A stretch of 64,000 nt of DNA from assembly GCA_964613715.1 (NCBI GenBank), contig CAZTJK010000003.1:7322-71321 (forward strand), read 5' to 3'. Made by a program: the position numbers and the translations under genes. The stretch is from an uncultured Candidatus Saccharibacteria bacterium (lineage in GTDB: Bacteria > Patescibacteriota > Minisyncoccia > Phycocordibacterales > GWA1-40-21). Of this stretch, positions 4,361-64,000 are shown in pieces (the stretch's first letter is position 1; every line of letters starts with the position of its first letter). The notes under the pieces are model-generated. The model had not been told where the DNA came from. It worked only from the letters and a program-made list of their open reading frames with translations, and did no database searches.

Positions 4361-4379
4361 TTTTCCCCTCTCAAATCCT

Positions 4380-4850
4380 ATGCGCAGAAAACTCAAAACA
4401 AAGCAACCGCTGAAGCCAGACTACAAATATCAGTCGGAAAAGATCGCGAAGCTCGTCAACTACGTCATGTATGACGGCAAGAAGTCCGTCGCAGAACGCG
4501 CCGTCTATGACATGCTCGAACTCATCAAGGAAAAAGCCAAAGTGAAGAATCCTGTCGAGGTCGTGGAATTGGCATTGTCCAATACCGCGCCGAATATGGA
4601 AGTCCGCTCCAAGCGTGTCGGCGGCGCCAATTACCAGGTGCCGATGGAAGTTCGCCCGGCTCGTCGATCCGCACTCTCCATGAAATGGATCGTCGAAGCA
4701 GCTCGCTCGAAAAAGGGTGCAGCGATTGCGGAAAAACTCTCAAACGAAATCATCGCAGCCTCGAAGAACGAAGGTGAAGCAGTGAAGAAGAAGGAGAACG
4801 TGCACAAGATGGCAGAGGCGAACAAGGCCTTCGCCCATTTCGCCTGGTAA
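4380..4850 (+). CDS. rpsG: 30S ribosomal protein S7
   Basis: MRRKLKTKQPLKPDYKYQSEKIAKLVNYVMYDGKKSVAER... matches the uS7 family. The start ATG at 4380 lies just after the rpsL stop. The ORF-track start at 4281 overlaps rpsL in another frame. Confidence 0.92.
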   Translation: MRRKLKTKQPLKPDYKYQSEKIAKLVNYVMYDGKKSVAERAVYDMLELIKEKAKVKNPVEVVELALSNTAPNMEVRSKRVGGANYQVPMEVRPARRSALSMKWIVEAARSKKGAAIAEKLSNEIIAASKNEGEAVKKKENVHKMAEANKAFAHFAW

Positions 4851-4997
4851 TTTTTCTTCAAATTTTCGCGCCTCGCTTCGTTGCCGAAAAAATTTCCTCC
4901 CGCGCAGTACTCCGGTACAGCTTGGTCGCAAATTTTTTCGGCGCCTGGCGATCCATCGAAAATTTTTTGAAAAATAGCAACATTACAACGTACAAGC

Positions 4998-5003
4998 TAT
5001 AAT
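4998..5003 (+). promoter_or_regulatory. -10 box TATAAT 6 nt upstream of the fusA ATG (leaderless arrangement)
   Basis: The sequence is gcTATAATcacattATG. Phased A/T tracts lie upstream at 4860-4980. Confidence 0.35.
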
Positions 5004-5009
5004 CACATT

Positions 5010-7175
5010 ATGAAACGAGATTATCCATTAGAAAAAGTACGCAATTTCGGTATTATCGCCCATATCGACGCAGGCAAGACGACGGTGTCGGAGCGCATTC
5101 TCTTCTATACCGGTTCGCAGCATAAGATCGGCGAAGTGCATGAAGGTGCGACGACGACCGACTGGATGGAACAGGAACGCGAGCGCGGCATTACGATCAC
5201 GTCGGCTGCCATCACCTGCTTCTGGAACCCGTCGTACATGCCGAAGGAGGACATTTCGAAAAAAGTCCGATTCAATATCATCGACACGCCGGGACACATC
5301 GACTTCACCGCAGAGGTGAAGCGCTCTCTTCGCGTGCTCGACGGCGCAGTCGTCGTGTTCGACGGCGTTGCCGGCGTGGAACCGCAGTCCGAGACCAACT
5401 GGCGCTATGCCGATGAAGGCAAAGTGCCGCGCATCTGTCTGATTAATAAATTGGACCGCACGGGCGGCTCATTCGAGCGCTCGTACCAGTCCATTCTCGA
5501 ACGCTTGACCAAAAATGCAGTAAGAATGCAATTGCCGATCGGCGCAGAATCCGATTTCAAGGGTCTCGTCGACCTGATGAAGATGAAAGCGTATTACTTC
5601 GAAGGCTCGATGGGCGAGAAAATCGTCGAGGGGGAAATTCCTGCCGAGATGATGGATGATGCAAAGAAATACCGCATCGAGCTCGTGGAGAAGATTGCCG
5701 GTGAGGATGAGAAGCTCATGACTGAATACCTCGAAGGCAAGGAGATTCCGCTCGCTGATTTGAAAGCAGCGCTCCGCAAGGCGACGATCGCAAACACCAT
5801 CGTACCGGTCTTTACCGGTTCTGCACTCAAGAACAAGGGCGTGCAGCTTACACTCGACGCCGTTGTCGACTATCTGCCATCTCCGCTCGATATTCCTCCA
5901 GTCAAAGGCGTGAACCCGAAGAATGGGGAAGAAATCGTCCGCCATGCATCCGATGCCGAGCCGTTCTGCGCCCTTGCATTCAAGCTCCAGAATGACCCGT
6001 TCGTAGGCCAGCTGACGTACTTCCGCGTATACTCAGGCAGCATCAGTGCCGGTACGTATATTTATAATTCAACGACGGGCGACCGTGAGCGCCTTGGCCG
6101 CATCGTGCGCATGCACGCAAACGATCGCGAAGACGTGGAAACCGTCTTTGCCGGAGAAATCGCGGCAGCCGTAGGACTCAAGAGCGCGAAGACCTCGCAT
6201 ACCTTCTGTGATGAAGCGAATCCGATCATTCTCGACCAGATCGTCTTCCCAGAGCCGGTCATTTCGCTCAGAATCGAGCCGAAGACGAAGGCTGACCAGG
6301 AAAAGATGGGCCTCGCGCTCAAGAAATTGTCCGACGAGGATCCGACATTCAAGATTAAGTCTGATTCTGAGACTGGCGAGACCGTCATGATGGGTATGGG
6401 CGAACTCCATTTGGAAATTCTCGTCGATCGCATGAAGCGCGAATTCAATGTGGAAGCGAATATCGGCAAGCCACAGGTCGCTTACAAGGAAACCATTACG
6501 GGCGAAGCAGAGAAGGAAGAGAAATACATCAAACAGACAGGCGGCAAGGGCCAATACGGCCATGTGCTCATCAAGATCAAGCCAATGGAGAAGCTTGAAG
6601 AGGGAGCCAAGATCCCGAAGAACGTCAAGCGCTACGACGAGTTCGAGTTCATCGACTCGATCAAGGGCGGCGTCATCCCGCAGGAATTCATCCCAGCCGT
6701 TGAAAAGGGCGTTCGCGAAGCAATGGAGCGCGGTATTGTTGCCGGCTACAAGATGGTGAATGTCTCGTGCGAACTGACATTCGGTTCCTATCACGATGTC
6801 GACTCGTCGGAAATTGCCTACAAGATCGCCGCGTCCCAGGCATTTCAGGATGCTGCGAAGCGCGCGCGGCCGGTCATTCTCGAGCCGATCATGAAAGTGG
6901 AAGTCGTCACCCCGGAGAAATTCATGGGCGATGTGTCAGGATCAATCAATTCACGCCGCGGACAGATCACGGAAATGTTTGATCGCGGTATGAACAAGGT
7001 CATCCGCGCGAACGTACCGCTCGCCGAAATGTTCGGCTACGTCACGACACTCCGCTCGATTTCCGAGGGTCGCGCATCATCAACCATGGAATTCGGCCAG
7101 TACGAGATCGTGCCGCCGAATGTGGCCAAATCGATCATCGAGGCTCGCGGGGTTACCTCCCAGCGCGTTTCGTAA
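5010..7175 (+). CDS. fusA: elongation factor G
   Basis: [10 protein letters not shown]-domain motifs, 721 aa, EF-G family throughout. Confidence 0.97.
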
Positions 7176-7192
7176 GAGACGCTCAATGCAGA

Positions 7193-7229
7193 AAACAGCC
7201 GGCCGCACAAAGCGCGGCCGGCTGTTTTC
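7193..7229 (+). terminator. rho-independent terminator after fusA
   Basis: aaacagccggccgcacaaagcgcggccggctgttttc. Confidence 0.6.
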
Positions 7230-7234
7230 ATTAT

Positions 7235-7263
7235 TTGACGTTTCCAACCTCATTTGCTACTAT
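7235..7263 (+). promoter_or_regulatory. sigma70-like promoter (TTGACG-17-TACTAT) for tuf
   Basis: Consensus-like hexamers with a 17-bp spacer. A 5' UTR of about 175 nt follows. Confidence 0.5.
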
Positions 7264-7444
7264 AGCGAAACGCACTGCGCTTTTTTCTTTTGTCCGGTTT
7301 TGGGCAAAAGTAGCGCAACGTTGCAAGTCGTAATTTACAAGTTTCCCAGTCCGCCCATGCGGCGAATGATGGGAGTAATCATATCTATTGGTTTTCGAGG
7401 CAGAGCCAATCTCGCGCGCTCCGCTTCAAAAATCAAAAAAACAT

Positions 7445-8647
7445 ATGGCAGAATTTTTGAGAGACAAACCGCACGTAAACGTCGGCACCATCGGTCACAT
7501 TGACCACGGCAAGACGACCCTTACCGCGGCTATTACCCATGTCCAGTCTTTGAAGGGCCTGGCAAATCAGATCGCCTACGATCAGGTCGCGAAAGCCTCC
7601 GAATCAGCAGGCCGCCGCGACGCATCGAAGATCATCACGATCGCGATCTCGCACGTTGAATACTCGTCAGACACGAGACACTATGCGCATGTGGACTGCC
7701 CAGGACACGCTGACTATGTGAAGAACATGATCACGGGTGCCGCCCAGATGGACGGTGCTATCCTCGTGGTATCCGCAGTCGACGGCCCGATGCCGCAGAC
7801 CCGCGAACACATCCTGCTTGCAAAGCAGGTTGGTGTGCCGAAGATCGTCGTCTTCCTCAACAAGTGCGATCTCGTCACCGATAAGGACCTTCTCGACCTC
7901 GTCGAGTCGGAAATCCGCGACCTTTTGACCAAGTATGGCTTTGACGGTGCAAATGCTCCGATCATCCGCGGTTCGGCAACCGGCGCTCTTGCAGCGACCA
8001 AGGCCGATGATGCGGGTGCAGCTTGCATCACTGAGCTTATGAAGGCGCTCGACACCTATATCCCGCTTCCAACACGCGATATCGACAAGCCATTCCTCAT
8101 GCCGATCGAAGACATCTTCTCCATTGAAGGTCGTGGCACCGTGGTTACGGGCAGAATCGAGCGTGGTCAGGTGAAAGTCGGTGAGGAAGTTGAAATCGTA
8201 GGTATCAAGCCGACGACAAAGACGACCATTACCGGTATCGAAATGTTCAACAAGCAGCTCCAGAGCGGCATGGCCGGCGACAATGCAGGCGTGCTCCTCC
8301 GCGGCACCAAGAAAGAGGATGTGCACCGCGGCCAGGTTCTTGCCAAGGCAGGAACGGTCACCCCGCACACCGAATTCGAGGCAGAAGTCTATGTCTTGAA
8401 GAAAGAAGAAGGAGGCCGCCATACGCCATTCTTCTCCGGCTACAAGCCGCAGTTCTACATGAGAACGACTGACGTTACTGGCGACGTGACCCTCGCATCA
8501 GGCGTGGAAATGGTCATGCCAGGCGACACCGTGACCTTCAAGGTCAAGCTCGTCGCTCCGGTCGCTCTTGAAGAGAAGATGCGCTTCGCATTCCGCGAAG
8601 GCGGCAAGACTGTCGGTTCCGGCGTTATCACGAAAGTCATCGCCTAA
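7445..8647 (+). CDS. tuf: elongation factor Tu
   Basis: [26 protein letters not shown]...[10 protein letters not shown]. The ATG at 7445 is preferred over the longer track ORF. Confidence 0.97.
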
Positions 8648-8682
8648 CCGACCGGGTGCTTGCACCCACCACAGAGCTCTTT

Positions 8683-9078
8683 ATGGAAAAAACAGCAGCA
8701 AAAAAGAATACAGCAAAGACCGCTGCGGCATCCAAAGTAAAAATGCCGAAAATGCCGGCAAAAGCCGACGCAACTTCGATCTTGCGCATCCGCGTCCGCG
8801 CGTATGATTCCAAGATCCTTGATGCGTCTGTAAAGCAGATCATTGAAACAGCGCTCCGCCACGACGCACAAGTCGTTGGTCCGGTGCCGCTTCCGACGGA
8901 AATCAAGAAATATACGGTCAACCGTGCGTCATTCGTCTACAAAAATGCGCGAGAGCAGTTTGAGATGAGGATACACCGCCGCTTGATCGATATTGTGAAT
9001 CCTTCGGCCAAAGTGATCGAGGCGCTCACCAACATGAGCTTGCCGTCCGGCGTGAACATTGATGTGAAGATGAACTAA
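8683..9078 (+). CDS. rpsJ: 30S ribosomal protein S10 with a Lys/Ala-rich N-terminal extension
   Basis: The core ILRIRVRAYDSKILD...RRLIDIVNPSAKVIEALT is uS10. About 30 extra N-terminal residues are present. Confidence 0.9.
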   Translation: MEKTAAKKNTAKTAAASKVKMPKMPAKADATSILRIRVRAYDSKILDASVKQIIETALRHDAQVVGPVPLPTEIKKYTVNRASFVYKNAREQFEMRIHRRLIDIVNPSAKVIEALTNMSLPSGVNIDVKMN

Positions 9079-9150
9079 GTGCGTATACCAGGGGCATGAT
9101 CCCGCACGCAAGAGCCTTGCGCGCGGGATCCTCTGCCATTAACGAAATCT

Positions 9151-9756
9151 ATGAAATTTACACTCGGGACAAAACAGAATATGACCCAGATCTTCGACGA
9201 GAACGGCACCGTCCACCCGGTGACCATCCTTGCCGCAGGACCTTTGACCGTCACCCAGGTCAAGACAAAAGATACCGACGGCTATGATGCCGTACAGGTC
9301 GCGTTCGGCATGCGCAAGGAGAAGAATATCTCCAAGGCAGTGCTCGGGCATCTGAAAGGCGTGCATGCGCGATTCATAAAGGAATTCCACACGGCGGATA
9401 CGTCGAAATTCAAAGTCGGCGATACGATTGACCTGTCTTCATTCACGATCGGCGACACGATCGAAGTGTCTGCCATCTCGAAAGGCAAGGGACATCAGTC
9501 GGTCATCAAGCGCCACGGTTTCCATGGCCAGCCACGAAGCCACGGCCAGAAGCATTCGGAAAACGCGCCGGGTTCCATCGGCGGCGGCTTGCGCAACAAG
9601 GTGCCGAAAGGCATGCGCATGGCTGGCCGCATGGGCGGGGAGCGCGTAACCGTGAAGAATTTGAAAGTCCTTGGCGTCGACAAGGAAGCGAATCAGATCC
9701 TCGTCGGCGGCGCAGTGCCGGGACGACGGGGAACGCTTGTCGAAGTGCGCGGCTAA
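9151..9756 (+). CDS. rplC: 50S ribosomal protein L3
   Basis: MKFTLGTKQNMTQIFDENG...FHGQPRSHGQKH matches uL3. Confidence 0.95.
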   Translation: MKFTLGTKQNMTQIFDENGTVHPVTILAAGPLTVTQVKTKDTDGYDAVQVAFGMRKEKNISKAVLGHLKGVHARFIKEFHTADTSKFKVGDTIDLSSFTIGDTIEVSAISKGKGHQSVIKRHGFHGQPRSHGQKHSENAPGSIGGGLRNKVPKGMRMAGRMGGERVTVKNLKVLGVDKEANQILVGGAVPGRRGTLVEVRG

Positions 9757-25310: not shown

Positions 25311-25360
25311 CGTACCCAAAAGAAAAATGCGGAGCAGTCCGCATTTTTCTTTTGGGTACG
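25311..25360. repeat. long perfect palindrome (22-23-bp arms, 5-nt loop) acting as a bidirectional terminator. Its right arm includes the 3' end of tRNA-Ile.
   Basis: cgtacccaaaagaaaaatgcgga-gcagt-ccgcatttttcttttgggtacg. Confidence 0.6.
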
Positions 25361-25430
25361 CCCGCCTGGATTCGAACCAGGGACCACGAAGGTATAAGCT
25401 TCGCGCTCTAACCAGCTGAGCTACGGGCGT
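25357..25430 (-). tRNA. tRNA-Ile (anticodon UAU)
   Basis: Manual fold: acceptor acgcccg/cgggcgt, D-arm gctc-agctggtta-gagc, anticodon arm cgaag-cTTATAc-cttcg, T-arm cctgg-ttcgaat-ccagg. 74 nt. The 1-72 pair is A-U and CCA is not cleanly encoded. Confidence 0.75.
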
Positions 25431-25549
25431 ATGCGCCTATGCTATAGCAAAACGAGCTTCGCGGCAATTCATTTTCTTGCTGCAAGCGGGCCCGCATGCT
25501 AGGCTCAAAAAAGAAGCAGTCACAATCCTGAAAAAGAAAGGAGCCGGGC

Positions 25550-29197: not shown

Positions 29198-29686
29198 ATG
29201 ACAATACTCACCACAGCAGAAATCATTACTCGCATCGCGATCGCCGTCGGTCTCGGCGCTATCCTTGGTCTTGAGCGCACTTTTGCCGGCAAGCGCGCTG
29301 GCATGCGCACCTACGCCATGGTCGCGCTCGGCGCTGCGGTATTCATTATTATTGCGCAAAATGTCATCGCGGGGCTCGCATCTGCCGTCGGAGCAAATCC
29401 GCTCGGCGTTGCCGGTGCCATTATTTCTGGTATTGGCTTCATCGGTGCTGGTCTTCTGATTTTCCATGACAATAAGGTGACGGGTCTCACGACTGCTGCC
29501 GGCCTTTGGGTCTCTTCCGCAGTTGGCATGGCCTCGGGATTTGGTTTTTTTAGTCTTGCAACGATGACGACTGTCGCAGCGCTCATGGTATTCACCATGT
29601 TCTGGTTCATCGAGCACGGATTCCTCAAGTTTACGAGCCGCAAGAATTCGGATTATACCGACGAAGACGAGAACGGGAAGAAATAA
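29198..29686 (+). CDS. MgtC/SapB family membrane protein
   Basis: MTILTTAEIITRIAIAVGLGAILGLER...GMRTYAMVALGAAVF matches the MgtC N-terminal domain. Confidence 0.8.
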   Translation: MTILTTAEIITRIAIAVGLGAILGLERTFAGKRAGMRTYAMVALGAAVFIIIAQNVIAGLASAVGANPLGVAGAIISGIGFIGAGLLIFHDNKVTGLTTAAGLWVSSAVGMASGFGFFSLATMTTVAALMVFTMFWFIEHGFLKFTSRKNSDYTDEDENGKK

Positions 29687-29698
29687 AAAAATGAATCA

Positions 29699-29736
29699 AA
29701 AAAGCGCCGGCCGCGAAGCGGCCGGCGCTTTTCATT
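29699..29736. terminator. bidirectional terminator
   Basis: aaaagcgccggccgcgaagcggccggcgctttt. Confidence 0.6.
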
Positions 29737-29740
29737 TTCT

Positions 29741-30190
29741 TTACTGCCACGCAGCAAGGATTGCTCCCATCACTGCCACTTCAGTGAGCAAGCTCACGGT
29801 ATCAAAAAGCCAGAGCTTTTTCGATCGGCCCATCCAGATCATTTCTACCGATGACGCCGCTGCGACAAAAAGCCACATCCATGCGCCAAGCACCGCGCCA
29901 CGGTACCAGCTGATCGCGCCCATTAGTGGGGAGGCGAATACGAGCCACATTGCTCCGGAGAGCACGAATGCCAGGACAACATTTGCGACATAGTTTGCAA
30001 ACATCTGCCCTTTCATGCCAGCAAACGTTTCCTTGCCGGTCGGGGTCACGTTTGCAAGCCGCATCCAGATTTTGCCGAAGAGCGGTCCATGAAAGAGAAA
30101 GCCGATGATAAAAGCTGCTGCTGCAGCGACGAGTATTGCGAGAATATTGATCGTGAACATGAGTGAATTATATAATAAGGCTGATAACAC
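29741..30190 (-). CDS. DUF1761-like membrane protein
   Basis: AILVAAAAAFIIGFLFHGPLFGKIWMRLA resembles the DUF1761 N-terminus. 149 aa, 4 TM. Confidence 0.5.
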   Translation of the reverse strand: MLSALLYNSLMFTINILAILVAAAAAFIIGFLFHGPLFGKIWMRLANVTPTGKETFAGMKGQMFANYVANVVLAFVLSGAMWLVFASPLMGAISWYRGAVLGAWMWLFVAAASSVEMIWMGRSKKLWLFDTVSLLTEVAVMGAILAAWQ

Positions 30191-30200
30191 TCTTAGTATA

Positions 30201-30455
30201 TCATTTTTTCTTGTCCTTCCAGTTCCACCACTTCAGCTTCTCGACATCACGCCCACCTTCGGCATAGTACACTGCCGTGCGAAATACATATAAGAGACAG
30301 CGGTCTTGCACCAGACCTGCGAATTTATTCGAGGCATCAAAGAGCTTTTCCGGATCTTTACCAGCGAGGTCTTTTACTTCCTGGATGCCGATTTCTTCCA
30401 AATCTTTCGCGATCGATTCCCCGACGCCCGGGATGATAGTAAGAGGAGATTTCAT
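30201..30455 (-). CDS. helix-hairpin-helix domain protein
   Basis: 84 aa. TIIPGVGESIAKDLEEIGIQEVKDLAGK is HhH-like. Confidence 0.55.
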   Translation of the reverse strand: MKSPLTIIPGVGESIAKDLEEIGIQEVKDLAGKDPEKLFDASNKFAGLVQDRCLLYVFRTAVYYAEGGRDVEKLKWWNWKDKKK

Positions 30456-30683
30456 TGTGCGGGGGCTCGTGAACGACGTTAGAAACGCAGTAATAAATTC
30501 CGACCAAAACTACTCCTTAAATATACCTGAAATTTCAGAAATGAAAAATTCGGATAGCACGCCTGAAATTATACCGGTCATAACCGATACAGACCAAGAC
30601 TCCTGAAGTTATCATCTTTTGTAACTTTCCTATAGAACTTATACACACCTAAACGCATTAGATTTAGGGTAAGTACAAACTAT

Positions 30684-30863
30684 ATGGAAATCTCAAAAGA
30701 AGGGATCGAGGAGTTTAAGCAAGCTCACTTGGAGGTATATGGGTATGAAATATCGGATGAGGAAGCGAGGGAGATAGCCCAGAGACTTGTCGGATTACTT
30801 TTATTGGTAGAAAGGCCGTTACCAGAAGACGTGGAACTAGAAAAAGATGAGGATGATTTTTAA
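30684..30863 (+). CDS. small acidic hypothetical protein (59 aa)
   Basis: ORF MEISKEGIEEFKQAHLEVYGYEISDEEAREIAQRLVGLLLLVERPLPEDVELEKDEDDF, which falls below the 60-aa track cut-off. It is speculative. Confidence 0.2.
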   Translation: MEISKEGIEEFKQAHLEVYGYEISDEEAREIAQRLVGLLLLVERPLPEDVELEKDEDDF

Positions 30864-30893
30864 TAATAAAGGATTGGATACGAGTTCACCACC

Positions 30894-31328
30894 TTAAGAA
30901 ATATCACGAGCAGGGCACACTAAAATATTTTTGCCTACCAGTTCCTTTTTAACTTTTCTGATCAACGCCGCATCATCAGAATAAACAGTTGTTTGAATTT
31001 GAAATAGTTGGGTTTGACGTTGATTTGCCGAGATTTCTGAAAACATAAGCAGTGTTGCCAGAATGGAAACGTCCCCAAATCCCGTCATGTTGTAAAAAGA
31101 ACGCCCACCATACTTGTTAAGAATCTGTCGGTAATGTTTAAGGTAAACTCCTTCATCAAAATCGTTAGTTTTGGAAATTGTAAATATTCGATCTGGAAGA
31201 TGTTTTTTATGAATTATTTCGGTCATCTCAACTTCATCCTCAACATCGGGTACCAAGAAATAATCATCTTGAAGAGTAAGATTATTTTTAAGGATATGTT
31301 GGACGGCGTTTGTATCAATGATGTTCAT
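30894..31328 (-). CDS. PIN-domain nuclease (VapC-like)
   Basis: MNIIDTNAVQHIL (the D-T-N motif). Later acidic residues are at PDVEDE, GFGDVSILA and SDDAALI. The start overlaps the upstream stop (ATGA). Confidence 0.65.
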   Translation of the reverse strand: MNIIDTNAVQHILKNNLTLQDDYFLVPDVEDEVEMTEIIHKKHLPDRIFTISKTNDFDEGVYLKHYRQILNKYGGRSFYNMTGFGDVSILATLLMFSEISANQRQTQLFQIQTTVYSDDAALIRKVKKELVGKNILVCPARDIS

Positions 31329-32521
31329 ATACCAAGCTCATTACGATATTTGCGATAGCCCTTTTTATTAGGTGCTCCCCATATCAAATATTGGGCCTGT
31401 GTACTTGGCAAAGTACCAGCTTGAATCGATCTGTTAATAGTTTGAAATGTAATTCGGCCGCAAAATTTTTCCACTGATGTTGAAATTCGTGGAGCGCGAC
31501 CTCGTCTTTTATTTTTTTTCGGAACATATGGTGGCGGTTTTAATGATTCGTATTCTTGCTTGGAGATAATTCCTCTCAGATGAAGAGTGGTAACCAGCGC
31601 CAGTGGAGAAACCTTTAGCTTGCTGGAAAGAGTATCGATTGTTGATCGGGTTACACGTTCCTTGCGTAGAGGTTCAACCTCTATTGATGGAATAAGGAGT
31701 TCTGACGTAATCGTGTGTAGTCTTGCCGGAACACCAGTTGCCTTCAACATTTTGGTTTTAAAATCCTTATCAAGAAAGTAGTTGTACTGCCCAAGACCAA
31801 TGATTGATAGGAGATAAACCAGTGTATAGATTTGCCGGCTTTCTACCTCATCCGGATTGACCTCGCTTGGAAGGAAAACAAAAGGTACCCGATCATCTTT
31901 AATGACAAAACCACTGGTGTTCCGGTAAACATCGCTTGATACGACCTGGTGCATCGGAAGAATCTTATGTGTCAGGACTCCTCGCGAGACAGTGATGTTT
32001 TTGCTTTCCACTTGACGAATAAGATATTCCAGCGCCTTTCCTTTTCCAGTAAAGCGCCACAATTGATTTCGATCAATTTCGAAATGAGAAAGGATCTGGT
32101 TCGCCGCTTGACTTGGTTGAAATCCATTTATTGACCCGCAGAATAGATTTTTAGGAAAAACAGTTGAAGTTGTCAGGAAATTTTGCTGACGGATTAACCT
32201 ATCGATGATGCGCTTCGAGGTGATATTCCCAGATCCTTTGCGTTTCGCAATAAGTTTGGGAGAGATTTTATATCGACGTTGCTTATCAATATGGTCGATT
32301 TGAATATCGAGATTAGCGGAAGTGAGAAAAAACATCTGCCAAGCAATTAGAATTATCTCGCTTTCTTTTTGGAGATCCGAAAAGTCGATTTGTCCATTGG
32401 TGAATGCAGTACTAAAAACAGGTCTGTTTATCAATCCTTCTTCGGGATAAATTTCAAGAATGCGTTTGACTACGCCATCTTCAATTTCTACGGAATTTGT
32501 ATCGTCGACTGTGACATACAT
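31325..32521 (-). CDS. hypothetical protein (398 aa) with a basic C-terminus, no recognisable domain
   Basis: Co-oriented and translationally coupled with the PIN gene. No P-loop or HExxH. The C-terminus KKNKRRGRAPRIS...KKGYRKYRNELGI is basic. Confidence 0.5.
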   Translation of the reverse strand: MYVTVDDTNSVEIEDGVVKRILEIYPEEGLINRPVFSTAFTNGQIDFSDLQKESEIILIAWQMFFLTSANLDIQIDHIDKQRRYKISPKLIAKRKGSGNITSKRIIDRLIRQQNFLTTSTVFPKNLFCGSINGFQPSQAANQILSHFEIDRNQLWRFTGKGKALEYLIRQVESKNITVSRGVLTHKILPMHQVVSSDVYRNTSGFVIKDDRVPFVFLPSEVNPDEVESRQIYTLVYLLSIIGLGQYNYFLDKDFKTKMLKATGVPARLHTITSELLIPSIEVEPLRKERVTRSTIDTLSSKLKVSPLALVTTLHLRGIISKQEYESLKPPPYVPKKNKRRGRAPRISTSVEKFCGRITFQTINRSIQAGTLPSTQAQYLIWGAPNKKGYRKYRNELGI

Positions 32522-32530
32522 AAAGTTGAC

Positions 32531-33352
32531 CTAATGAGTAGCTTCTTTTGGCGGATTGTATTCGATTTTTGGCGGTAGATCAGTCATTGCATAATGGACA
32601 AACTGCTGACCAAGTTCTGAAAGTTCATACAAATCTTCCTCATCGAAGGCTGATTCCATTGGTTTCGGGCCAGAGCGCGGCACCGGCGATCTTCTCTGGG
32701 GTGTTTTTCCGTAAAAATTACCTTCCGCATCTTTTTCCCGATGTTGTCGGATGATACCACCCATGTTGAGATCACGAATGAGGAGGCGATACAAACCAGC
32801 TTCTGGTGAGTCTTCACGCACTGGACCTTTGCCGATCTTCCGCCAAATCACTCCGCGACTTATTCCGTTTGTGTTATACACGGCAGCGATCACCTGGAAG
32901 TGTAATTCGGAGTAGGTCTTAAGCCAATCAATGAACAACCGTACCACATCGTCACTTGTAATGGTTGAAGCGGCAGCATTCGCAAGAATATTTCTGATAT
33001 AAACTCTTTTTTCCTCGCTTTCTGTCCCCGACCATTCGCGGAACGTTTTCTTCATAAGAGACTGATATTCCTTACTCTCGATCCTTTCGGCTACCTTGTT
33101 GTCATGCATATCAAGCCTTGCCATTATTTCGAGAATGGTTTGCTGTTTTTCTCGTAGTTCATCCTCAAGCATTTTTATCCAATGCTGAAAGAATTTGTTT
33201 ACTTTTTCCTGTTCGTTTTCAGACCAAGCCCCTGCCGCAGCTGAAAATAAGCCACCTGCGAATGGAACTGCGCCACCAATAACTTGCAATGCACCGCGCA
33301 CGATTTTCGGCGTTGGACCTTCTTCTGGTATATTTTTATTTTCTTCGGTCAT
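32531..33352 (-). CDS. hypothetical protein (273 aa) with a Gly/Ala-rich N-terminal hydrophobic segment
   Basis: The N-terminal segment is GALQVIGGAVPFAGGLFSAAAGAW. It overlaps the doc stop by 4 bp (ATGA) and sits 9 bp upstream of the next gene. Confidence 0.5.
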   Translation of the reverse strand: MTEENKNIPEEGPTPKIVRGALQVIGGAVPFAGGLFSAAAGAWSENEQEKVNKFFQHWIKMLEDELREKQQTILEIMARLDMHDNKVAERIESKEYQSLMKKTFREWSGTESEEKRVYIRNILANAAASTITSDDVVRLFIDWLKTYSELHFQVIAAVYNTNGISRGVIWRKIGKGPVREDSPEAGLYRLLIRDLNMGGIIRQHREKDAEGNFYGKTPQRRSPVPRSGPKPMESAFDEEDLYELSELGQQFVHYAMTDLPPKIEYNPPKEATH

Positions 33353-33810
33353 TGCGATACATCCTCAGATTGCATTGCGGCCATTTCTCTGTTATCAACC
33401 AAATGTTTTTCTATCGTTTCTGCTATTTGCTCCATGATGGTAATCCGTTCTGCTGGTTTGCTTCCTGCGATTCCCACCGCGAAATTATACAACTCTATCT
33501 TATTGATATTGAGCCATTTGCCATTTTTGTAGAGAAAATAGAATAGGCTCATGACCGCGATTCGCTTGTTGCCATTTTGGAATGGATGGTTCTTGATCAT
33601 GAGGTAAAAGAAGGTGCTGGCTTTACTCACAAGCCCTTGATATTGGTCTTTTTTGGCGAAACGGAAGAAGGGTGTTTTGATGCAACTTTCAAGCACGTTT
33701 GGAAACCGGGTACCAAAATCAGGGATCGGCTCATCCCAATTCATGAGCTTTTGAGCGAATGCAAAAGCAACGTATTCAATTTCATTGACCGTAATATTCT
33801 TTGTTCTCAT
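33349..33810 (-). CDS. doc: Doc/Fic-family toxin (death-on-curing-like)
   Basis: Fic motif HPFQNGNKRIAV (HxFx[D/N]GNKR). 153 aa. Overlaps the upstream HTH gene by 4 bp. Confidence 0.8.
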   Translation of the reverse strand: MRTKNITVNEIEYVAFAFAQKLMNWDEPIPDFGTRFPNVLESCIKTPFFRFAKKDQYQGLVSKASTFFYLMIKNHPFQNGNKRIAVMSLFYFLYKNGKWLNINKIELYNFAVGIAGSKPAERITIMEQIAETIEKHLVDNREMAAMQSEDVSQ

Positions 33811-34064
33811 TCCTTTCCGAGTTGCTTAAAGACATCCCCATACTCTATTAATGCCCGATCAATAGCTTTTTCTATTTCTTCTTTCTTTGTGGTTCCGATT
33901 GCCTTTCCAAGCAACTCTTCTAATGATTCATAGGGAATGACATAGTTACGTCCGACCTTCTGGGCTTTGATTTCTCCAGATTGGATCTTTTGGAAGACAG
34001 CTATACGGCTCAGATGCAGAATATTGGCTGCTTCTACGGTGGAATACATTGATTTTATAGTCAT
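33807..34064 (-). CDS. HTH (excisionase/MerR-type) DNA-binding protein, the putative antitoxin of Doc
   Basis: 85 aa. STVEAANILHLSRIAVFQKIQSGEIKAQKVGRNYVI is an HTH_17-like motif. It is the first gene of the operon. Confidence 0.7.
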   Translation of the reverse strand: MTIKSMYSTVEAANILHLSRIAVFQKIQSGEIKAQKVGRNYVIPYESLEELLGKAIGTTKKEEIEKAIDRALIEYGDVFKQLGKE

Positions 34065-34072
34065 ATTTGAAG

Positions 34073-34088
34073 CTTAACATATGTTAAG
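34073..34088. promoter_or_regulatory. perfect 16-bp palindrome cttaacatatgttaag, the candidate operator for the HTH antitoxin
   Basis: It lies 9-24 nt upstream of the antitoxin ATG on the minus strand. Confidence 0.45.
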
Positions 34089-34114
34089 TCTCAAGCAAGA
34101 CGATGAGCTAGCCA

Positions 34115-34160
34115 GTTCTAACATCGTCTCGGAAACAGTAACACTGGACTATGTTAGAAC
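34115..34160. repeat. 10-bp perfect inverted repeat gttctaacat...atgttagaac with a 26-bp spacer
   Basis: It sits between the island operon promoter and the tRNA-Ser 3' end and is followed by tttt on the plus strand. Confidence 0.4.
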
Positions 34161-34214
34161 TTTTGAAAATATCCTTGTGGATTTTGGTTTTTTTATTTGG
34201 GTAGGACTAAAAAG

Positions 34215-34303: not shown

Positions 34304-34386
34304 GTATCCGCCCACGATAGCATATTCACTTCTATTATTCTACTTTTCTTGCCTTGCTCCTCGTGGTGCTCTTGCTATACTTGTGA

Positions 34387-34756
34387 TATGGCTCATCGAA
34401 ACATTCTCAACTTTCTTTTAGTACTGCAGCTTCTGCTCAATGCGCTTTGGTTCGTGCTTGCATACATGACGAAAAGCGCCGGCATCGCATATACGTCGGT
34501 ATTACTCTTGTGGATGTCCGTGATCGCAATTCTACTTTTCGCAAACCTGTCAAAAGGCATCGTCCTGCTCCTCGTACCATATATATTGTGGATATACGGC
34601 ATTTCCTACAGCACCTATTTTTCCTGGCAGGGGAATCAGGCGCTTGCGGCAGAGCCGGTGGCCTGCACCATGGAGGCAAAGCTTTGCCCGGATGGATCAT
34701 ATGTGGGACGTACGGGACCATCCTGCGAATTCGCTGCATGCCCAGGAGGGAAATAA
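34387..34756 (+). CDS. hypothetical membrane protein with a Cys-rich C-terminal tail
   Basis: 122 aa from the ATG at 34387, which has a TATACT -10 7 nt upstream. The C-terminus reads CTMEAKLCPDGSYVGRTGPSCEFAACPG. Confidence 0.4.
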
Positions 34757-57631: not shown

Positions 57632-57702
57632 TTGCGGGATCGTCTAATGGTAGGACACGCCCCTCTGGAGGGTGGTATCTTGGTTCGAGTCCAAGTCCCG
57701 CA
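57632..57702 (+). tRNA. tRNA-Gln (anticodon CUG)
   Basis: U1:A72 (tgcggga/tcccgca), D-arm gtc-taatggta-ggac, anticodon arm cgccc-cTCTGGa-gggtg, T-arm cttgg-ttcgagt-ccaag. 71 nt. Confidence 0.75.
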
Positions 57703-57846
57703 GCAAAAAGAACACAGCGATTTTTGCTGCGGGAAGCAAGCGCAGAGCTTGCGTCTTGGACGAGAAGACCTTGAGTATATCGCACGGAGCCTTTGCGAGT
57801 ACGATACGAAAGGTGTACAGTGCCTGTAAGGAACGAGATGCGAAGC

Positions 57847-57862
57847 GGTCCAAGTCCCGCAG
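57847..57862 (+). repeat. exact 16-bp direct copy of the tRNA-Gln 3' end (gtccaagtcccgcagc)
   Basis: It is identical to 57688-57703 and sits 159 bp downstream, immediately before the AT-rich island. Confidence 0.6.
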
Positions 57863-57874
57863 CTAGCAAATCTC

Positions 57875-57880
57875 GGTATA
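57875..57880 (+). promoter_or_regulatory. -10 TATAAT 9 nt upstream of the ATG at 57890
   Basis: ctcggTATAATcatcaacATG. Confidence 0.3.
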
Positions 57881-57889
57881 ATCATCAAC

Positions 57890-58147
57890 ATGCTTGTTGT
57901 ATCGAAAAAAATTTCATTGCTTCTTCTCGGCATTACGGCTATCACCTGCTCCAGGATCTTGTTTCTTTGTATTAACGATCCTGAAGGCCCAAATCTGCTC
58001 GTCGTTCTAGGTATGGCAGCGATTCTCTACTTTTTGTCTTTGGCAGTATATGTATTCCTTCCCGCAACCGTCAGTCTCAAGAAGCTCCCATTGGCTATTT
58101 TGACACAGCTGCTCATAGCCGCCGGATTATATTTTTGTTTGCGCTGA
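57890..58147 (+). CDS. hypothetical small membrane protein
   Basis: 85 aa, 3 TM. AT-rich. Confidence 0.35.
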   Translation: MLVVSKKISLLLLGITAITCSRILFLCINDPEGPNLLVVLGMAAILYFLSLAVYVFLPATVSLKKLPLAILTQLLIAAGLYFCLR

Positions 58148-58268
58148 GAGTTCCAGCCTCGCACGAGCCGGAGTATTTTCTCATTTCTCATTCATGCATG
58201 CTATACTTGCATCCAGTTATAAGCTAAACATATTCATATGAATCCAGTCCTGCATTTCGAAAAAAGAT

Positions 58269-59111
58269 TTATCGCCATATTTTTCCGAATATCCTTTCAG
58301 ACAATGCTATAAGCTCAGAATCGTTTTTAATTGTTTCAAAAATAGGATCTTGATCATATTCTTTCCATCTTTCAAGGACTGACATTTTTAAGGCATCTTC
58401 TTTGAATTTCATCCCATCGAAAGAGCTGCCGCCTCCATAAGTCGAAACTTTTGGCCATTGAGCTACTTCTAGCTCGCAACCCAGCTTTTTTGAAAGCTCG
58501 AGCCTGTAATCCTCATCCAGGAACCATGTATTGAAGTTTATGGTAATTTTGTCAGGTAGATGATTTGTCATTCCCAAAAATTCTCGAGCGTGCGATTTCC
58601 AGACAGTTATCGTATGTGCATAAGCTGCGCTTTTTAGTTTGATATCCTGAAGCGTCAATTCTCGGCCGCTTTTTATCCTGCTTGCGATGAAATTATAAAT
58701 ATCTCGCAGAATGAGTATACATTTCCTATTTTTGTACGGAGCGAAGTGATTGGCAAAATCATCTACTGACATGGGTAAATGGGCAGGATCGAGATTCTCG
58801 AAATTCATCATTAATAGATTTTTTTCAGAATTGAAAATCCTTGTTTTTATATCCCTTGTTTCTGGAAGGAATTCCTTAAGCTTTTCCTTTACTAATCCAT
58901 GCTTGACCCAGCTATCGCTTATCTTAGAATAGTATTTTCTGTTATTATAGTGATATTGGACTCGGTTTTCGAATAGAGAGTCAGGCGATGAGAAATCGCA
59001 ATAATTGAAGAAGAATTTTTCCGGCCCAAATTGCTCGTAGATCCATTCCATGACCCCATGGTGGCCGCTACGGGACATCGCTATCACGAGGAATAAGTTT
59101 TTATTAGGCAT
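58269..59111 (-). CDS. sulfotransferase-like P-loop protein (tentative)
   Basis: 280 aa. The N-terminal LFLVIAMSRSGHHGVMEWI resembles a PAPS-binding 5'-PSB loop. AT-rich island gene. Confidence 0.35.
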   Translation of the reverse strand: MPNKNLFLVIAMSRSGHHGVMEWIYEQFGPEKFFFNYCDFSSPDSLFENRVQYHYNNRKYYSKISDSWVKHGLVKEKLKEFLPETRDIKTRIFNSEKNLLMMNFENLDPAHLPMSVDDFANHFAPYKNRKCILILRDIYNFIASRIKSGRELTLQDIKLKSAAYAHTITVWKSHAREFLGMTNHLPDKITINFNTWFLDEDYRLELSKKLGCELEVAQWPKVSTYGGGSSFDGMKFKEDALKMSVLERWKEYDQDPIFETIKNDSELIALSERIFGKIWR

Positions 59112-59126
59112 AGATTACTTATCAGT

Positions 59127-59618
59127 ATGGAAATAAAATCAAAAATTAGCAATACTGACGGAAGCGAGACAGAAATTACTTACATCGATACTCAATCGTT
59201 TGATAGTTTAGAGTGCGATAAAGTACGGCAAGCATACGGAGTATGTTTCCTCAACGGACAGATGCTCATTGTTTTTAATCGTAAACGCAAAGCCTGGGGA
59301 CTCGTGGGCGGCAGTCTTGAAGTAGGAGAAACCTATGAGGAATGTTTGAAAAGGGAGGTGGAAGAAGAGGCAAATATGCAGGTTCTTAATTTCCAGCCAA
59401 TCGGCTATCAAAAAGTGGATATTCCTGCAAAGGGATTCATATATCAGCTTCGCTATGTCTGTATTATTGAACCACTCGGTCCTTTTGTCGCAGATCCAGA
59501 CGGTTCAATTACTGAGATCAAGCTCATCGACCCTACAACTTACAAAGAGTATTTTGATTGGGGGGATATTGGCCATCATATCATTACCAAAGCAATCGAA
59601 ATCAGTCGGTCGCTTTAA
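59127..59618 (+). CDS. Nudix hydrolase
   Basis: Nudix box GGSLEVGETYEECLKREVEEEANM. 163 aa. Confidence 0.8.
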   Translation: MEIKSKISNTDGSETEITYIDTQSFDSLECDKVRQAYGVCFLNGQMLIVFNRKRKAWGLVGGSLEVGETYEECLKREVEEEANMQVLNFQPIGYQKVDIPAKGFIYQLRYVCIIEPLGPFVADPDGSITEIKLIDPTTYKEYFDWGDIGHHIITKAIEISRSL

Positions 59619-59680
59619 TTGACTAACCTTGACTTTTATAGTACTCTTCTTAGAGAAAACCTTTTTGAAAGGAGGGTGTC

Positions 59681-60214
59681 ATGCTCGATGAAATAGTTCA
59701 CATTATGCTGAAGCCTGACACTCTCGAGTGCGGCATCCGTAATGTAATCCTTGATGAACTGTTGAAGGTTGGCGGAAGCCTGATTTTTTCCAAACGGTTG
59801 GTTCTTACCATGTCGCAGATTTCAGTCATTTATCCTCACTTCGGTAATGAGAGGGCTAAAGGAGCAGTCTTCCATTATTTTACTTCCCGTGAAACCGAAC
59901 ATCTTGCTTTTGGGGGACCAAAAGGAATCCATGCTCGGTATCAAGAAGCGAAAGGAAAAACGGGAACCGGGATTGGTATAAAGGGAAAGTATTATACTCG
60001 ATATACCAAACTGACTGAGGACGAGCTCAGAAAATGGTTCGACGGGACTCTTGAGAACATACAAGATATTGATCTTGAAATGTTCGGAAGAGACATCCTC
60101 CATATTCCGAATTCTCCCGAAGAAAGTATAAATGATATCTTTTCTGTTTTTGAACCTTGTGAAATAGCTGTCATCAGCACGTGGTATCAGTTTCCGAAAA
60201 GAACTTGCGTGTGA
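59681..60214 (+). CDS. nucleoside-diphosphate-kinase-like protein (divergent)
   Basis: N-terminal IVHIMLKPD and RDILHIPNSPEE are reminiscent of the NDK NIIHGSD region. 177 aa. Confidence 0.4.
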   Translation: MLDEIVHIMLKPDTLECGIRNVILDELLKVGGSLIFSKRLVLTMSQISVIYPHFGNERAKGAVFHYFTSRETEHLAFGGPKGIHARYQEAKGKTGTGIGIKGKYYTRYTKLTEDELRKWFDGTLENIQDIDLEMFGRDILHIPNSPEESINDIFSVFEPCEIAVISTWYQFPKRTCV

Positions 60215-60238
60215 TACGCAAGTTCTTTTTTAAAAAAG

Positions 60239-60862
60239 ATGCAGGATAAAAAAATTGTCATCTTCGATTTTTGGCAAACTTTGGCTGACGCTCAGCTCAA
60301 GCCTTCTTTCTTGTTGGGATTTTTTCCACTACCCAAGCCAGATTTGCATACTTTTTTAACAAGACTTTCCAGTTCAGATCTTTATTTAAAAGATGTTGAG
60401 ACCATCAAGGGAGTAGCGAATTTCCTTTTGCATTTCGATATTACAGATAAGAAAATCGTCGAAAAGATATCTTCCGCCTGGAAAGATTTAATCAAGACTG
60501 TTTATATTATTCCCGGAGCTTTAAAAATGATATCCGATCTGAAAGCACATGGGCATGCGGTATGTCTCATGAGCAACACTGATAAATTCGGCCATGAGCA
60601 TTTTCCTTTCCCTGAATTTTTTAAAAAATTCGACATGTTTTTCCTTTCATATAAAGAGGGTTTTGCAAAGCCAGATTTAAAATGCTGGCAGATTATTCGA
60701 GACCGTTCGGGGTATACTTATGACGATATGATTATGATAGGGGATAGCATGGAAAATGATATCTTACCCGCTCATGAGCTGGGCATAGATTCTATCCATA
60801 TTCAGAGGCAGGGAGACTTTGGCGTAGTGTATGACCGCCTGATAAACCATTCCGATGTATAA
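60239..60862 (+). CDS. HAD-superfamily hydrolase
   Basis: Motif I VIFDFWQTLAD, motif II CLMSNTD, motif III K (KPD), motif IV GDSMENDI. 207 aa. Confidence 0.75.
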   Translation: MQDKKIVIFDFWQTLADAQLKPSFLLGFFPLPKPDLHTFLTRLSSSDLYLKDVETIKGVANFLLHFDITDKKIVEKISSAWKDLIKTVYIIPGALKMISDLKAHGHAVCLMSNTDKFGHEHFPFPEFFKKFDMFFLSYKEGFAKPDLKCWQIIRDRSGYTYDDMIMIGDSMENDILPAHELGIDSIHIQRQGDFGVVYDRLINHSDV

Positions 60863-61931
60863 ACTGAAAATCGCATTCGTATATCCAAAGCGTTATTCCT
60901 TTTATCCTCCTGATTATGTATCTAGAGGCTTAGGAGGAACCGAAAGCACTCTCGTGCTTCTCGCGAGAGCTATCGCTAGACTCGGGCATGCAGTCGAAGT
61001 GTATAATTGCTGCTTCAAGCCGGGCGTTTATGATGGTGTTGTCTGGAGTTCTCTGTTAGATATCGATTCAAAAAGAGAATATGACGTAGTCATTTCTTTG
61101 CGCCTTCTTGAGACATTCCGAGACTATCATTTCAATGCAAAGCTCCGTGCTTTGTGGATCCATGACGAAGCCCTGAGTGGTGCTGAAGATTTTGATAAGA
61201 ACGGGATTGTAAATACGTGGATTTCAGTTTCGGAAACTCAAAAGAAAAGCCTATGTCGAGATCAATATATCGAAGATACACATTGGTTCGTCACTCGCAA
61301 TGCGTATGATGAGGACATATATACTGACGAGCTGAGAAAGACGAAGAAGATAAAAAACAGAGCCATTTACTGCAGCGCTCCCGATCGAGGGCTTAAATAT
61401 TTGCTTGAAATGTGGCCTGCAATAAAAGCAGAGGTACCTGATGCGAGTCTCGTTGTAACTGGCAGCTATGCTCTTTGGGGTACGTCTGACGAGGAAAATA
61501 AGCGGATCTTCGCCGATATTTATTCAATGGCTGACAAAACCGATGATGTTCAAATTCTCCAGAGGGTTTCCAAGCAAGAACTCTCAAAACTTCAGGTAGA
61601 AAGTGAGGTCATGCTGTATCCTACGGATTTCAACGAGATGTTTTGTATAAGCGCCCTCGAGTGTTTTGCTGCTGGAACGCCGATTATTTCTTCCAAAAGA
61701 GCCGCGATGATTGAACGAGTGGAAGAAGGTAAAACAGGATTTCTTATCGATGGAGATCCGAAAAACCTTGATTGTAAAGAACGATTCATTGCAACCGCGG
61801 TGAGATTTTTGAATGATGAAAAGATGAAACATGAATTCTCAAAAAATACTCTTCGTTCTTCTGCGAAATTAAATTTCGATAATCTTGCTCGGGAATGGGA
61901 AATTGAATTAATGAAGCGCCTTGAAATATGA
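60855..61931 (+). CDS. GT-B glycosyltransferase (family 4-like)
   Basis: C-terminal EALECFAAGTPIISS...GKTGFLI matches the GT4 nucleotide-sugar binding region. 358 aa. Confidence 0.7.
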   Translation: MYKLKIAFVYPKRYSFYPPDYVSRGLGGTESTLVLLARAIARLGHAVEVYNCCFKPGVYDGVVWSSLLDIDSKREYDVVISLRLLETFRDYHFNAKLRALWIHDEALSGAEDFDKNGIVNTWISVSETQKKSLCRDQYIEDTHWFVTRNAYDEDIYTDELRKTKKIKNRAIYCSAPDRGLKYLLEMWPAIKAEVPDASLVVTGSYALWGTSDEENKRIFADIYSMADKTDDVQILQRVSKQELSKLQVESEVMLYPTDFNEMFCISALECFAAGTPIISSKRAAMIERVEEGKTGFLIDGDPKNLDCKERFIATAVRFLNDEKMKHEFSKNTLRSSAKLNFDNLAREWEIELMKRLEI

Positions 61932-63967: not shown

Positions 63968-64000
63968 AATTATATGCATTGGAATCACGAGTATCATCCG

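Follow-up and report, generated by a model that had tools for sequence, protein, structure and literature searches.

A probable horizontally acquired islet of addiction and defence cassettes at the 3' end of tRNA-Ser(GCU) in a Patescibacteria genome

Members of the candidate phyla radiation (CPR), or Patescibacteria, have tiny genomes, and the way in which they acquire and keep accessory DNA is little understood. Among the described systems closest to the locus reported here are the type II toxin-antitoxin (TA) operons, which when autoregulated usually have operator sites upstream, including those of the Doc toxin, a Fic-fold kinase that phosphorylates EF-Tu and blocks translation, and is restrained by its partner. 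In addition, PIN-like genes located downstream of HTH-DUF955 (HTH, helix-turn-helix) genes have been proposed to form three-component TA systems, in which the peptidase keeps its HExxH motif and would cleave the HTH antitoxin (PMC5499597), while ImmA and CapP are regulators that cleave repressors (PMC5499597; bioRxiv 10.1101/2022.04.27.489752). In this work, a locus with genes of both kinds was analysed in a stretch of 64,000 nucleotides from an uncultured Candidatus Saccharibacteria bacterium (assembly GCA_964613715.1, contig CAZTJK010000003.1, positions 7,322 to 71,321), referred to below, at its full length, as the window. Its central part contains an AT-rich segment (positions 30456-34213, 3758 bases), hereafter the islet, which lies on the 3' side of a tRNA-Ser(GCU) gene and carries a Doc toxin gene with its HTH partner, a PIN nuclease gene coupled to a gene for a 398-aa protein, and a gene for a 273-aa protein. 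The evidence presented below points to a probably horizontally acquired, recombinase-less addiction/defence islet, a mosaic of independently moving cassettes, in a clade of Paceibacterota (Parcubacteria).

The GC content of the islet was clearly lower than that of the remaining window (0.408 vs. 0.505) and tetranucleotide deviation from the window average peaked at 29.5-32 kb, so that the drop in GC noticed between 30.46 and 34.21 kb in a preliminary description of the stretch was borne out. Among windows of the length of the islet, equal AT-richness was found only from 57.8 kb onward (57.8-64 kb), also behind a tRNA. The compositional shift was greatest at synonymous sites: GC content at third codon positions (GC3) was 0.30 for the PIN gene, 0.36 for the 398-aa gene, 0.41 for the 273-aa gene, 0.48 for doc and 0.38 for the HTH gene, with a core reference of 0.635 ± 0.051 (minimum 0.502; 32 long core open reading frames, ORFs), the two long islet genes lying 4-5 standard deviations (SD) below the core. 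Since this synonymous composition has not drifted towards that of the host, the view of the island as 'old', put forward in the preliminary description, is not supported. The flanking genes DUF1761 and Cdd1/HhH were host-like (GC3 of 0.587 and 0.541, respectively).

In order to compare the locus with its relatives, loci were retrieved with RecG, encoded 1.3 kb from the left edge of the islet, which yielded 80 loci from Patescibacteria/Paceibacterota (denoted by L numbers) with 61-78% identity, i.e., at genus to family distance. Mapping of the window proteins and tRNAs onto these loci showed the conserved order PilM-ComF-tRNA-Ser(GCU)-variable region-MgtC-RecG-tRNA-Ile(UAU), and DNA similarity to the relatives ended precisely at the 3' end of the tRNA, which had been proposed as the right edge of the islet and was identified as tRNA-Ser(GCU) by ARAGORN and Rfam. 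The presence of the same genes at the same place in relatives had been named as the finding that would speak against an island; none of the six islet ORFs was detected in any of the 38 syntenic loci that include tRNA-Ser. The expected form of the empty site, with tRNA-Ser directly followed by the HhH gene, was not observed: in the relatives tRNA-Ser is followed by MgtC, at a distance of 39 bp in L014 (a complete chromosome of 682 kb), 54 bp in L010, 99 bp in L017 and 1-9.6 kb elsewhere. DUF1761 and Cdd1/HhH were also missing at the slot position (a single DUF1761 match, of 32%, was located elsewhere in L078), and therefore the variable slot spans 29687-34213 and includes both genes. Thus, the idea of an accessory island stood as regards a foreign islet at the tRNA, while its boundaries had to be redrawn. 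The GC content of the islet (0.41) falls within the range typical of the relatives (0.33-0.47) and is thereby consistent with transfer within the phylum; the host, with 0.50, lies above most of them.

The proposed use of tRNA-Ser as an insertion site was supported by recombinases found in the relatives. A tblastn search with the recombinase that adjoins a homologue of the 398-aa gene located large serine recombinases in three syntenic loci (L034, 4127-5695, 522 aa; L028, 7058-8614, 518 aa; L025, 7927-9393, 488 aa). All three were intact, with Resolvase, Recombinase and Zn_ribbon_recom domains, and were situated on the 3' side of tRNA-Ser(GCU), the end of each ORF overlapping the 3' end of the tRNA by 13-55 nt. 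In L025 the recombinase belongs to an element of approximately 5 kb (4361-9393) with an adjacent rolling-circle Rep gene (REP_ORF2-G2P/RepSA-like), bounded by a direct repeat of the tRNA end (15 of 16 positions, a score reached by one of 100 shuffles). In L028, the cargo of the element was AT-rich (GC 0.36 vs. 0.45-0.50) and included a Schlafen/AlbA_2 protein. Because the recombinases overlap the tRNA 3' end and the L025 element carries a repeat of it, this end appears to be a real attachment site in the clade.

The islet itself was searched for remnants of such an element. As had been stated for integrases and transposases, no family match to an integrase, recombinase or transposase was obtained for any islet ORF (the rest of the window was not searched for tyrosine integrases), and tblastn at relaxed E-values with four large serine recombinases of relatives returned nothing in the whole window beyond trivial overlap of tRNA sequence. 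The reported lack of a clean copy of the tRNA 3' end was likewise reproduced, with no match to the 26-mer at up to three mismatches. The weak resemblance noted at about 30461 turned out to be a chance alignment: the best local score at the left edge was 11, for a null of 9.0 ± 1.7, and 15% of random 500-nt pieces reached 11. In an Rfam scan of the islet the tRNA alone was above threshold. Moreover, no DNA match of the islet was found in phage or plasmid collections.

With regard to the tRNAs of this region, tRNA-Ser(GCU) was inverted relative to ComF and RecG in about half of the relatives (L010, L017, L018, L025, L027-L030, L035, L037 and others); the order of the flanking blocks is nevertheless retained, a pattern indicating that local inversion has recurred at this tRNA. 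A second long-arm tRNA, called 'Ser(ACU)' by ARAGORN, was present near tRNA-Ser(GCU) in 15 loci (L026, L028, L032, L037, L040, L045, L048, L052, L056, L059, L062, L069, L070, L076 and L079). An A34 serine anticodon is unusual, and this tRNA may be a miscall or specific to a lineage. On the other side of the slot, tRNA-Ile(UAU) (25353-25431) adjoins recG, and was found near recG in most relatives (L003-L082); the UAU isoleucine tRNA is uncommon in bacteria, the usual one being the lysidine-modified CAU form.

Five minus-strand ORFs make up one compact co-directional string in the order HTH_17, Doc, 273-aa, 398-aa and PIN. Overlaps of 4 nt link the first three ORFs and likewise the last two, and a 9-nt spacer lies between the 273-aa and 398-aa genes. 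The statement that all genes are on the minus strand holds for this string, but not for a 59-aa plus-strand ORF, called as a gene in public assemblies, for which no family match and, by tblastn of related loci, no homologue in any fetched locus was found. The islet had been presented as one unit. Instead, it appears from the distribution of its genes to be a mosaic of at least three independently moving cassettes, namely HTH_17 with Doc, the 273-aa gene alone, and the 398-aa gene with PIN.

In the HTH_17/Doc cassette, matches of the toxin were above cut-off for TIGR01550 DOC_P1 (3.7e-13, 49.7 bits, cut-off 38.65) and Pfam Fic (6.4e-9, 37 bits, cut-off 24), and the PHROG family 'Doc-like toxin' was matched at 4.5e-20. 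The motif HPFQNGNKR is intact, corresponding to HxFx(D/N)(A/G)NKR, and plasmid homologues are annotated as death-on-curing toxins. Among the islet proteins, Doc alone matched PADLOC models, the candidate PDC-S23/S05. The earlier assignment of a Doc toxin and an HTH partner was thus upheld by family matches; the HTH_17 protein, judged from its gene, is presumed to be the antitoxin and repressor of Doc.

The region upstream of the string contains four of the five YTAACAT sites found on both strands of the window, all four within 84 bp upstream of the operon. One pair forms the palindrome TTAACAT-ATGTTAA (34074-34087), situated 10 bp ahead of the start codon. The second pair (CTAACAT, 34118-34124, and ATGTTAG, 34151-34157) lies within an inverted repeat, previously described as a perfect repeat of 10 bp, which was confirmed and reaches 15 nt when one mismatch is allowed (34114-34128 and 34147-34161; 93% complementarity). 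The RNA fold of the control region had a z value of -3.55. We infer that the YTAACAT sites are predicted operator sites for the HTH_17 protein, an interpretation that fits the inverted repeat better than an incidental repeat does because it is one of two inverted pairs of a single half-site. A function of the repeat as the tRNA terminator was ruled out, as no T-run follows it and the relatives have a canonical hairpin with a T-run. No such T-run terminator was found behind the tRNA in the window, and scoring of the minus strand between tRNA and operon yielded no sigma-70-like promoter; therefore, read-through from the tRNA promoter is possible.

The 398-aa protein, which the preliminary description had left without a recognised fold, showed a predicted structure with an ImmA/IrrE/CapP-like fold and extra N- and C-terminal helical domains. 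As the alignment of its family contains no invariant His or Cys, and HExxH occurs in only one of 120 members, it is best described, on the basis of the model, as a putative pseudo-peptidase; the position that presumably corresponds to the ImmA/IrrE active-site helix reads RQIYTLxYLL. In the PIN protein, D5, E32, D86 and D119 are invariant in 39 homologues and the predicted fold is closest to VapC structures, in agreement with the earlier assignment as a nuclease. No match to Pfam (including DUF955/Peptidase_M78 and DUF4411), NCBIfam or PADLOC at E ≤ 0.1 was obtained for either protein, the only library match being that of the 398-aa protein to PHROG 2439 'transcriptional regulator' (8.2e-7), and profile searches of the three uncharacterised families (398-aa, PIN and 273-aa) against PDB sequences gave no meaningful match. 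The 398-aa family comprises at least 218 members of about 400 aa; those with a taxon name are of Parcubacteria type (CPR), most have none, and a few are labelled 'ImmA (M78)' by JGI. No relatives were found in IMG/VR.

The genomic context of the pair was analysed in 49 genome and metagenome loci, 41 of which extend past the 398-aa gene and were usable. A PIN homologue was located directly behind the 398-aa gene in all 41, usually with the same 4-nt overlap, while the other islet genes were absent beside the pair, except for one 273-aa homologue in L095. The commonest neighbours among 145 ORFs were large serine recombinases (6, plus L090) and the type I restriction-modification subunits HsdR (5), HsdS (4) and HsdM (3). 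In six loci an orthologous large serine recombinase (53-85% identity) was divergently oriented 150-200 bp upstream of the pair. In L090 (GCA_964503215.1, CAZCYP010000001.1, 4044-13625), an AT-rich island of approximately 9.6 kb behind tRNA-Gln(CUG), bounded by a repeat of the tRNA end (18 of 21 positions), contained, in addition to the 398-aa/PIN pair, genes for a large serine recombinase, an N6 methyltransferase and an AIPR abortive-infection protein. A distant pair was present in L063 (281-5020), where genes for a serine recombinase, a DRT2 defence reverse transcriptase (PADLOC, 6.7e-111), an ImmA-like protein (27% identity, also without HExxH) and a PIN_4-like protein are contiguous, which suggests that the pseudo-peptidase/PIN family is wider than the sampled clade of proteins of about 400 aa. 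Given the modelled fold and the coupling of the genes, the 398-aa protein is presumed to partner the PIN nuclease as an antitoxin, sensor or regulator.

Islands behind tRNA-Gln(CUG) hold the 398-aa/PIN pair also in L097 and L099, as in L090. The window has a tRNA-Gln(CUG) of its own (57633-57704, plus strand), from which a second AT-rich region (GC of about 0.39-0.43; 57633-64000) runs past the window end. By eye, its ORFs looked like sulfotransferase-like, Nudix-like, HAD-like and glycosyltransferase proteins, and no integrase-like ORF was seen before 64 kb, the region having been inspected without a family-library scan.

The 273-aa protein, the other of the two listed as being of unknown fold, remained without a family or PDB match. 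It has an N-terminal Gly-rich hydrophobic segment followed by helical regions and belongs to a family of 2659 homologues (501 clusters at 50% identity). Members from Parcubacteria, Izemoplasmatales, Chitinivibrionales and Sulfurovum were 70-85% identical, which argues for frequent transfer of the gene between phyla; no protein match was found in phage and plasmid collections. The gene was solitary in the three contexts looked at: a cluster with type I restriction-modification (R-M), Shedu (SduA) and AAA_15 genes; a serine recombinase with methyltransferases; and a transposase. A conserved partner was sought and rejected, since the upstream genes of about 520 aa in L132 and L134 are unrelated, and a link to Abi_alpha (one of 37 members, at 2.4e-4) was too weak to use. 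PADLOC-DB v2 gave no significant model for the 273-, 398- and 144-aa proteins (marginal values: PRTase_III-A, 7.8e-4; RmrA, 0.013). Because of its genomic contexts, our best guess is that the 273-aa protein is a stand-alone defence or abortive-infection candidate.

Taken together, the composition of the islet, its absence from relatives, the modular spread of its genes and the exact boundary at the tRNA argue for a foreign origin. As for function, family knowledge predicts that Doc would phosphorylate EF-Tu and stop translation unless held by its partner; the HTH_17 protein would neutralise Doc, bind the four YTAACAT half-sites and so autoregulate the operon. The PIN protein, judging from its fold and active-site residues, would be a VapC-like, Mg-dependent endoribonuclease, and its 398-aa partner, keeping a peptide-binding peptidase fold with no zinc bound through HExxH, may hold it inactive until a trigger, for example infection by a phage, damage to DNA or the loss of the element, leads to its release. 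A VapBC-like module of this kind is suggested because the presumed antitoxin gene comes first, the genes are translationally coupled, their co-occurrence is strict and the PIN active site is intact. The net effect of the modules would be to stabilise the DNA that carries them, to abort phage infection, or both. The arrival route is the least certain step: the likeliest course is that the islet came as cargo of a serine-recombinase element that integrated at tRNA-Ser, its recombinase end being lost later, a route favoured because recombinases of this type are regular companions both of the site and of the 398-aa/PIN cassette. Beyond this, it is a tentative and, taken jointly, rather doubtful proposition that the 398-aa/PIN pair is a distinct, undescribed two-gene abortive-infection/addiction system, in which a dead peptidase acts as the sensing gate of a ribonuclease and accompanies large serine recombinases, and that the 273-aa protein is a new single-gene defence factor.

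Other explanations of the locus were weighed against the same data. A chimeric join of foreign DNA during assembly or binning might be suspected from the metagenome-assembled source and the sharp change in composition at both edges. This is extremely improbable, as independent assemblies of three sequencing runs (L001, L002 and L138) read across both junctions, L001 having the order TspO-tRNA-Ser-islet-Cdd1-DUF1761-MgtC and L138/L139 extending from the islet edge to RecG and further. The islet could also be a native segment, AT-rich because TA and defence genes are intrinsically so, or because of relaxed or different selection, in a genome whose core has drifted to higher GC. Homologous modules are indeed AT-richer than their surroundings elsewhere (0.30-0.40 vs. 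0.45-0.50 in L090; 0.41-0.47 vs. 0.50-0.55 in L083), and the GC of the host exceeds that of most relatives; however, the deviation is greatest at synonymous sites, the genes are missing in 38 syntenic relatives among which an empty site exists, each cassette recurs in unrelated contexts and the 273-aa gene in unrelated phyla, so that a native origin is very unlikely. For the 398-aa/PIN pair in particular, a role as the regulatory (immunity) module of a serine-recombinase element, comparable to ImmR/ImmA or CapH/CapP and orphaned after decay of the element, was considered. The lack of HExxH in 119 of 120 members makes repressor cleavage implausible, the pair also occurs without a recombinase, within type I R-M operons and beside DRT2, and a PIN protein that is always coupled and has four invariant acidic residues is better suited to an effector; hence this role is held to be unlikely, despite the fold shared with the repressor-cleaving ImmA and CapP and the divergent recombinase that precedes the pair in six loci, a layout characteristic of the regions that control such elements.

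A route without a site-specific recombinase would consist of homologous recombination of the flanking core DNA after uptake, or of piecemeal build-up of cassettes in a permissive intergenic slot. The exact boundary at the tRNA 3' end, the recombinases at precisely that site in three relatives and the habitual association of the 398-aa/PIN pair with large serine recombinases elsewhere speak against it, and the tight packing makes a pre-assembled block likelier than stepwise insertion. In its favour are the lack of a recombinase remnant and of an attachment (att) repeat, the independent spread of three cassettes with differing GC3 (0.30-0.48), the adjoining competence-type genes (ComF-like, PilM), the absence at this position in relatives of DUF1761 and Cdd1, which have native composition and indicate turnover of the slot without visible scars of mobile elements, and the inverted tRNA-Ser in many relatives, a sign of local rearrangement. 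Overall, such a route seems improbable, though with an appreciable chance of being correct.

Several observations weigh against the reading preferred here, that of a horizontally acquired, recombinase-less mosaic islet. In the window, with neither recombinase remnant nor att repeat, the integrative origin is drawn from analogy with the relatives only; in these, moreover, the recombinase abuts the tRNA where the window has the operon control region, and the deletion must have been neat. The nearest relatives are distant (RecG, 61-78%), so the absence of the islet from them does not date its gain, and no strain polymorphism was found, exact-protein look-ups of the flanking genes having given the same arrangement only, from the runs of one project. 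In most relatives the slot is occupied by ordinary accessory genes (MurD-like ligase, P-type ATPase, MscL, GH1), defence matches (pAgo, SIR2, type II restriction endonuclease, AriA) being confined to a few. Variable DNA favours the 3' side of the tRNA only weakly (19 of the 28 loci that have both anchors, and these are not independent). In addition, 398 aa is atypically large for an antitoxin, and PADLOC has no model for the 398-aa/PIN pair or for the 273-aa protein.

The features of the islet and of its immediate surroundings are listed in Table 1.

Table 1. Position, strand and supporting evidence of the features in and next to the islet (coordinates of the 64,000-nucleotide window).
Feature	Position	Strand	Evidence or remark
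DUF1761 and Cdd1/HhH genes	29741-30455	minus	Pfam DUF1761, 7.5e-18; Cdd1, 3.4e-26
Left junction, non-coding, AT-rich	30456-30683	none	No att-like copy of the tRNA end; no Rfam match
Acidic ORF, 59 aa	30684-30863	plus	Convergent with the PIN gene; gene call in L001, L002 and L138; status uncertain
PIN-domain nuclease (VapC-like fold), 144 aa	30894-31328	minus	First 4 nt shared with the end of the 398-aa gene
ImmA/IrrE/CapP-like (M78/COG2856) fold without HExxH, 398 aa	31325-32521	minus	Presumed antitoxin, sensor or regulator partner of PIN
Orphan protein, 273 aa	32531-33352	minus	Start overlaps the doc stop by 4 nt
Doc (Fic-fold) toxin, 153 aa	33349-33810	minus	Pfam Fic, TIGR01550, PHROG, motif
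HTH_17 protein (excisionase/MerR-type), 85 aa	33807-34064	minus	Pfam HTH_17, 2.5e-7; TIGR01764, 2.7e-8; overlaps the doc start by 4 nt
Upstream control region, 149 bp, AT-rich	34065-34213	minus	Four YTAACAT half-sites in two inverted pairs
tRNA-Ser(GCU)	34214/5-34303	minus	ARAGORN; Rfam tRNA, 54.7 bits; 3' end faces the islet (right boundary)

The Cdd1/HhH gene, whose composition is native, probably has its promoter in the left junction. A group of Rfam matches below threshold (Atu_C9, Thr_leader, BSnc120) was seen further to the left, where the MgtC and DUF1761 genes converge (29648-29760), and this segment is most likely a bidirectional terminator hairpin, not a small RNA. To the right of tRNA-Ser, the similarity of an ORF (34349-34756) to TspO/MBR was confined to the C-terminal half (positions 69-144 of 145 in the profile), and the ORF may be truncated or mis-started; short TspO-like matches were also seen in the variable regions of a few relatives (L027, L029, L049).

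The locus points to an integration slot for large-serine-recombinase elements across a clade of Paceibacterota, namely the tRNA-Ser(GCU) 3' end, which is framed by two blocks of deep conservation; in this slot, an integrase-less islet consisting of addiction/defence cassettes alone can probably persist. It also brings to light two numerous uncharacterised families, the ImmA-like pseudo-peptidase with its PIN partner and the mobile 273-aa protein, as candidates for new TA or anti-phage functions.

In comparison with described systems, the islet as a whole is of an ordinary kind, a small tRNA-linked genomic islet of addiction/defence cassettes. It shares with tRNA-associated islands and integrative elements, such as those of L025, L028 and L034, the position at a tRNA 3' end, the atypical composition, the TA/defence cargo and the absence from relatives, but differs from them in its very small size (3.8 kb) and in lacking a recombinase, a direct repeat and genes for replication or transfer. 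The HTH_17/Doc cassette resembles the Phd-Doc type II TA systems of phage P1 and its chromosomal homologues in the Doc/Fic-fold toxin with its kinase motif and in the small overlapping gene for a predicted DNA-binding protein ahead of the toxin and the palindromic sites upstream. Unlike in those systems, the partner belongs to the HTH_17/excisionase family and not to the Phd/YefM fold, and the toxin gene is followed by a translationally coupled third one (273 aa).

The 398-aa/PIN pair has features of VapBC type II TA systems, the PIN fold being closest to VapC with four conserved acidic residues and the toxin gene being second and overlapping, yet its partner is a 398-aa putative pseudo-peptidase instead of a small (about 70-100 aa) antitoxin of the AbrB, RHH, Phd or HTH type. 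The closest likeness is to the systems composed of HTH-DUF955 (COG2856, ImmA/IrrE) and PIN-like (DUF4411, COG2405, PIN_14/20/26) proteins (Matelska et al. 2017, PMC5499597; Makarova et al. 2009, PMC2701414), in which a PIN-like gene is also directly downstream of, and co-directional with, a gene of ImmA/IrrE fold, and which are likewise found in defence islands beside type I R-M genes. The published systems retain HExxH, whereas the 398-aa family does not, and the upstream protein of the islet, of about 400 aa, has additional helical domains at both termini. The 398-aa/PIN pair can be regarded as a variant of this predicted, experimentally uncharacterised type of system. In contrast to the regulators CapH/CapP, ImmR/ImmA and IrrE/DdrO, the 398-aa protein lacks the catalytic His-Glu-His, is not accompanied by a separate gene for a small repressor, and has a nuclease, not an operon under its regulation, as the partner to which it is coupled. 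With HExxH lost, its fold would have to act by binding and not by cleavage, which brings it closer to the non-proteolytic use of this fold in PrpR. In all these respects, the locus extends known kinds of system and leaves existing concepts standing.

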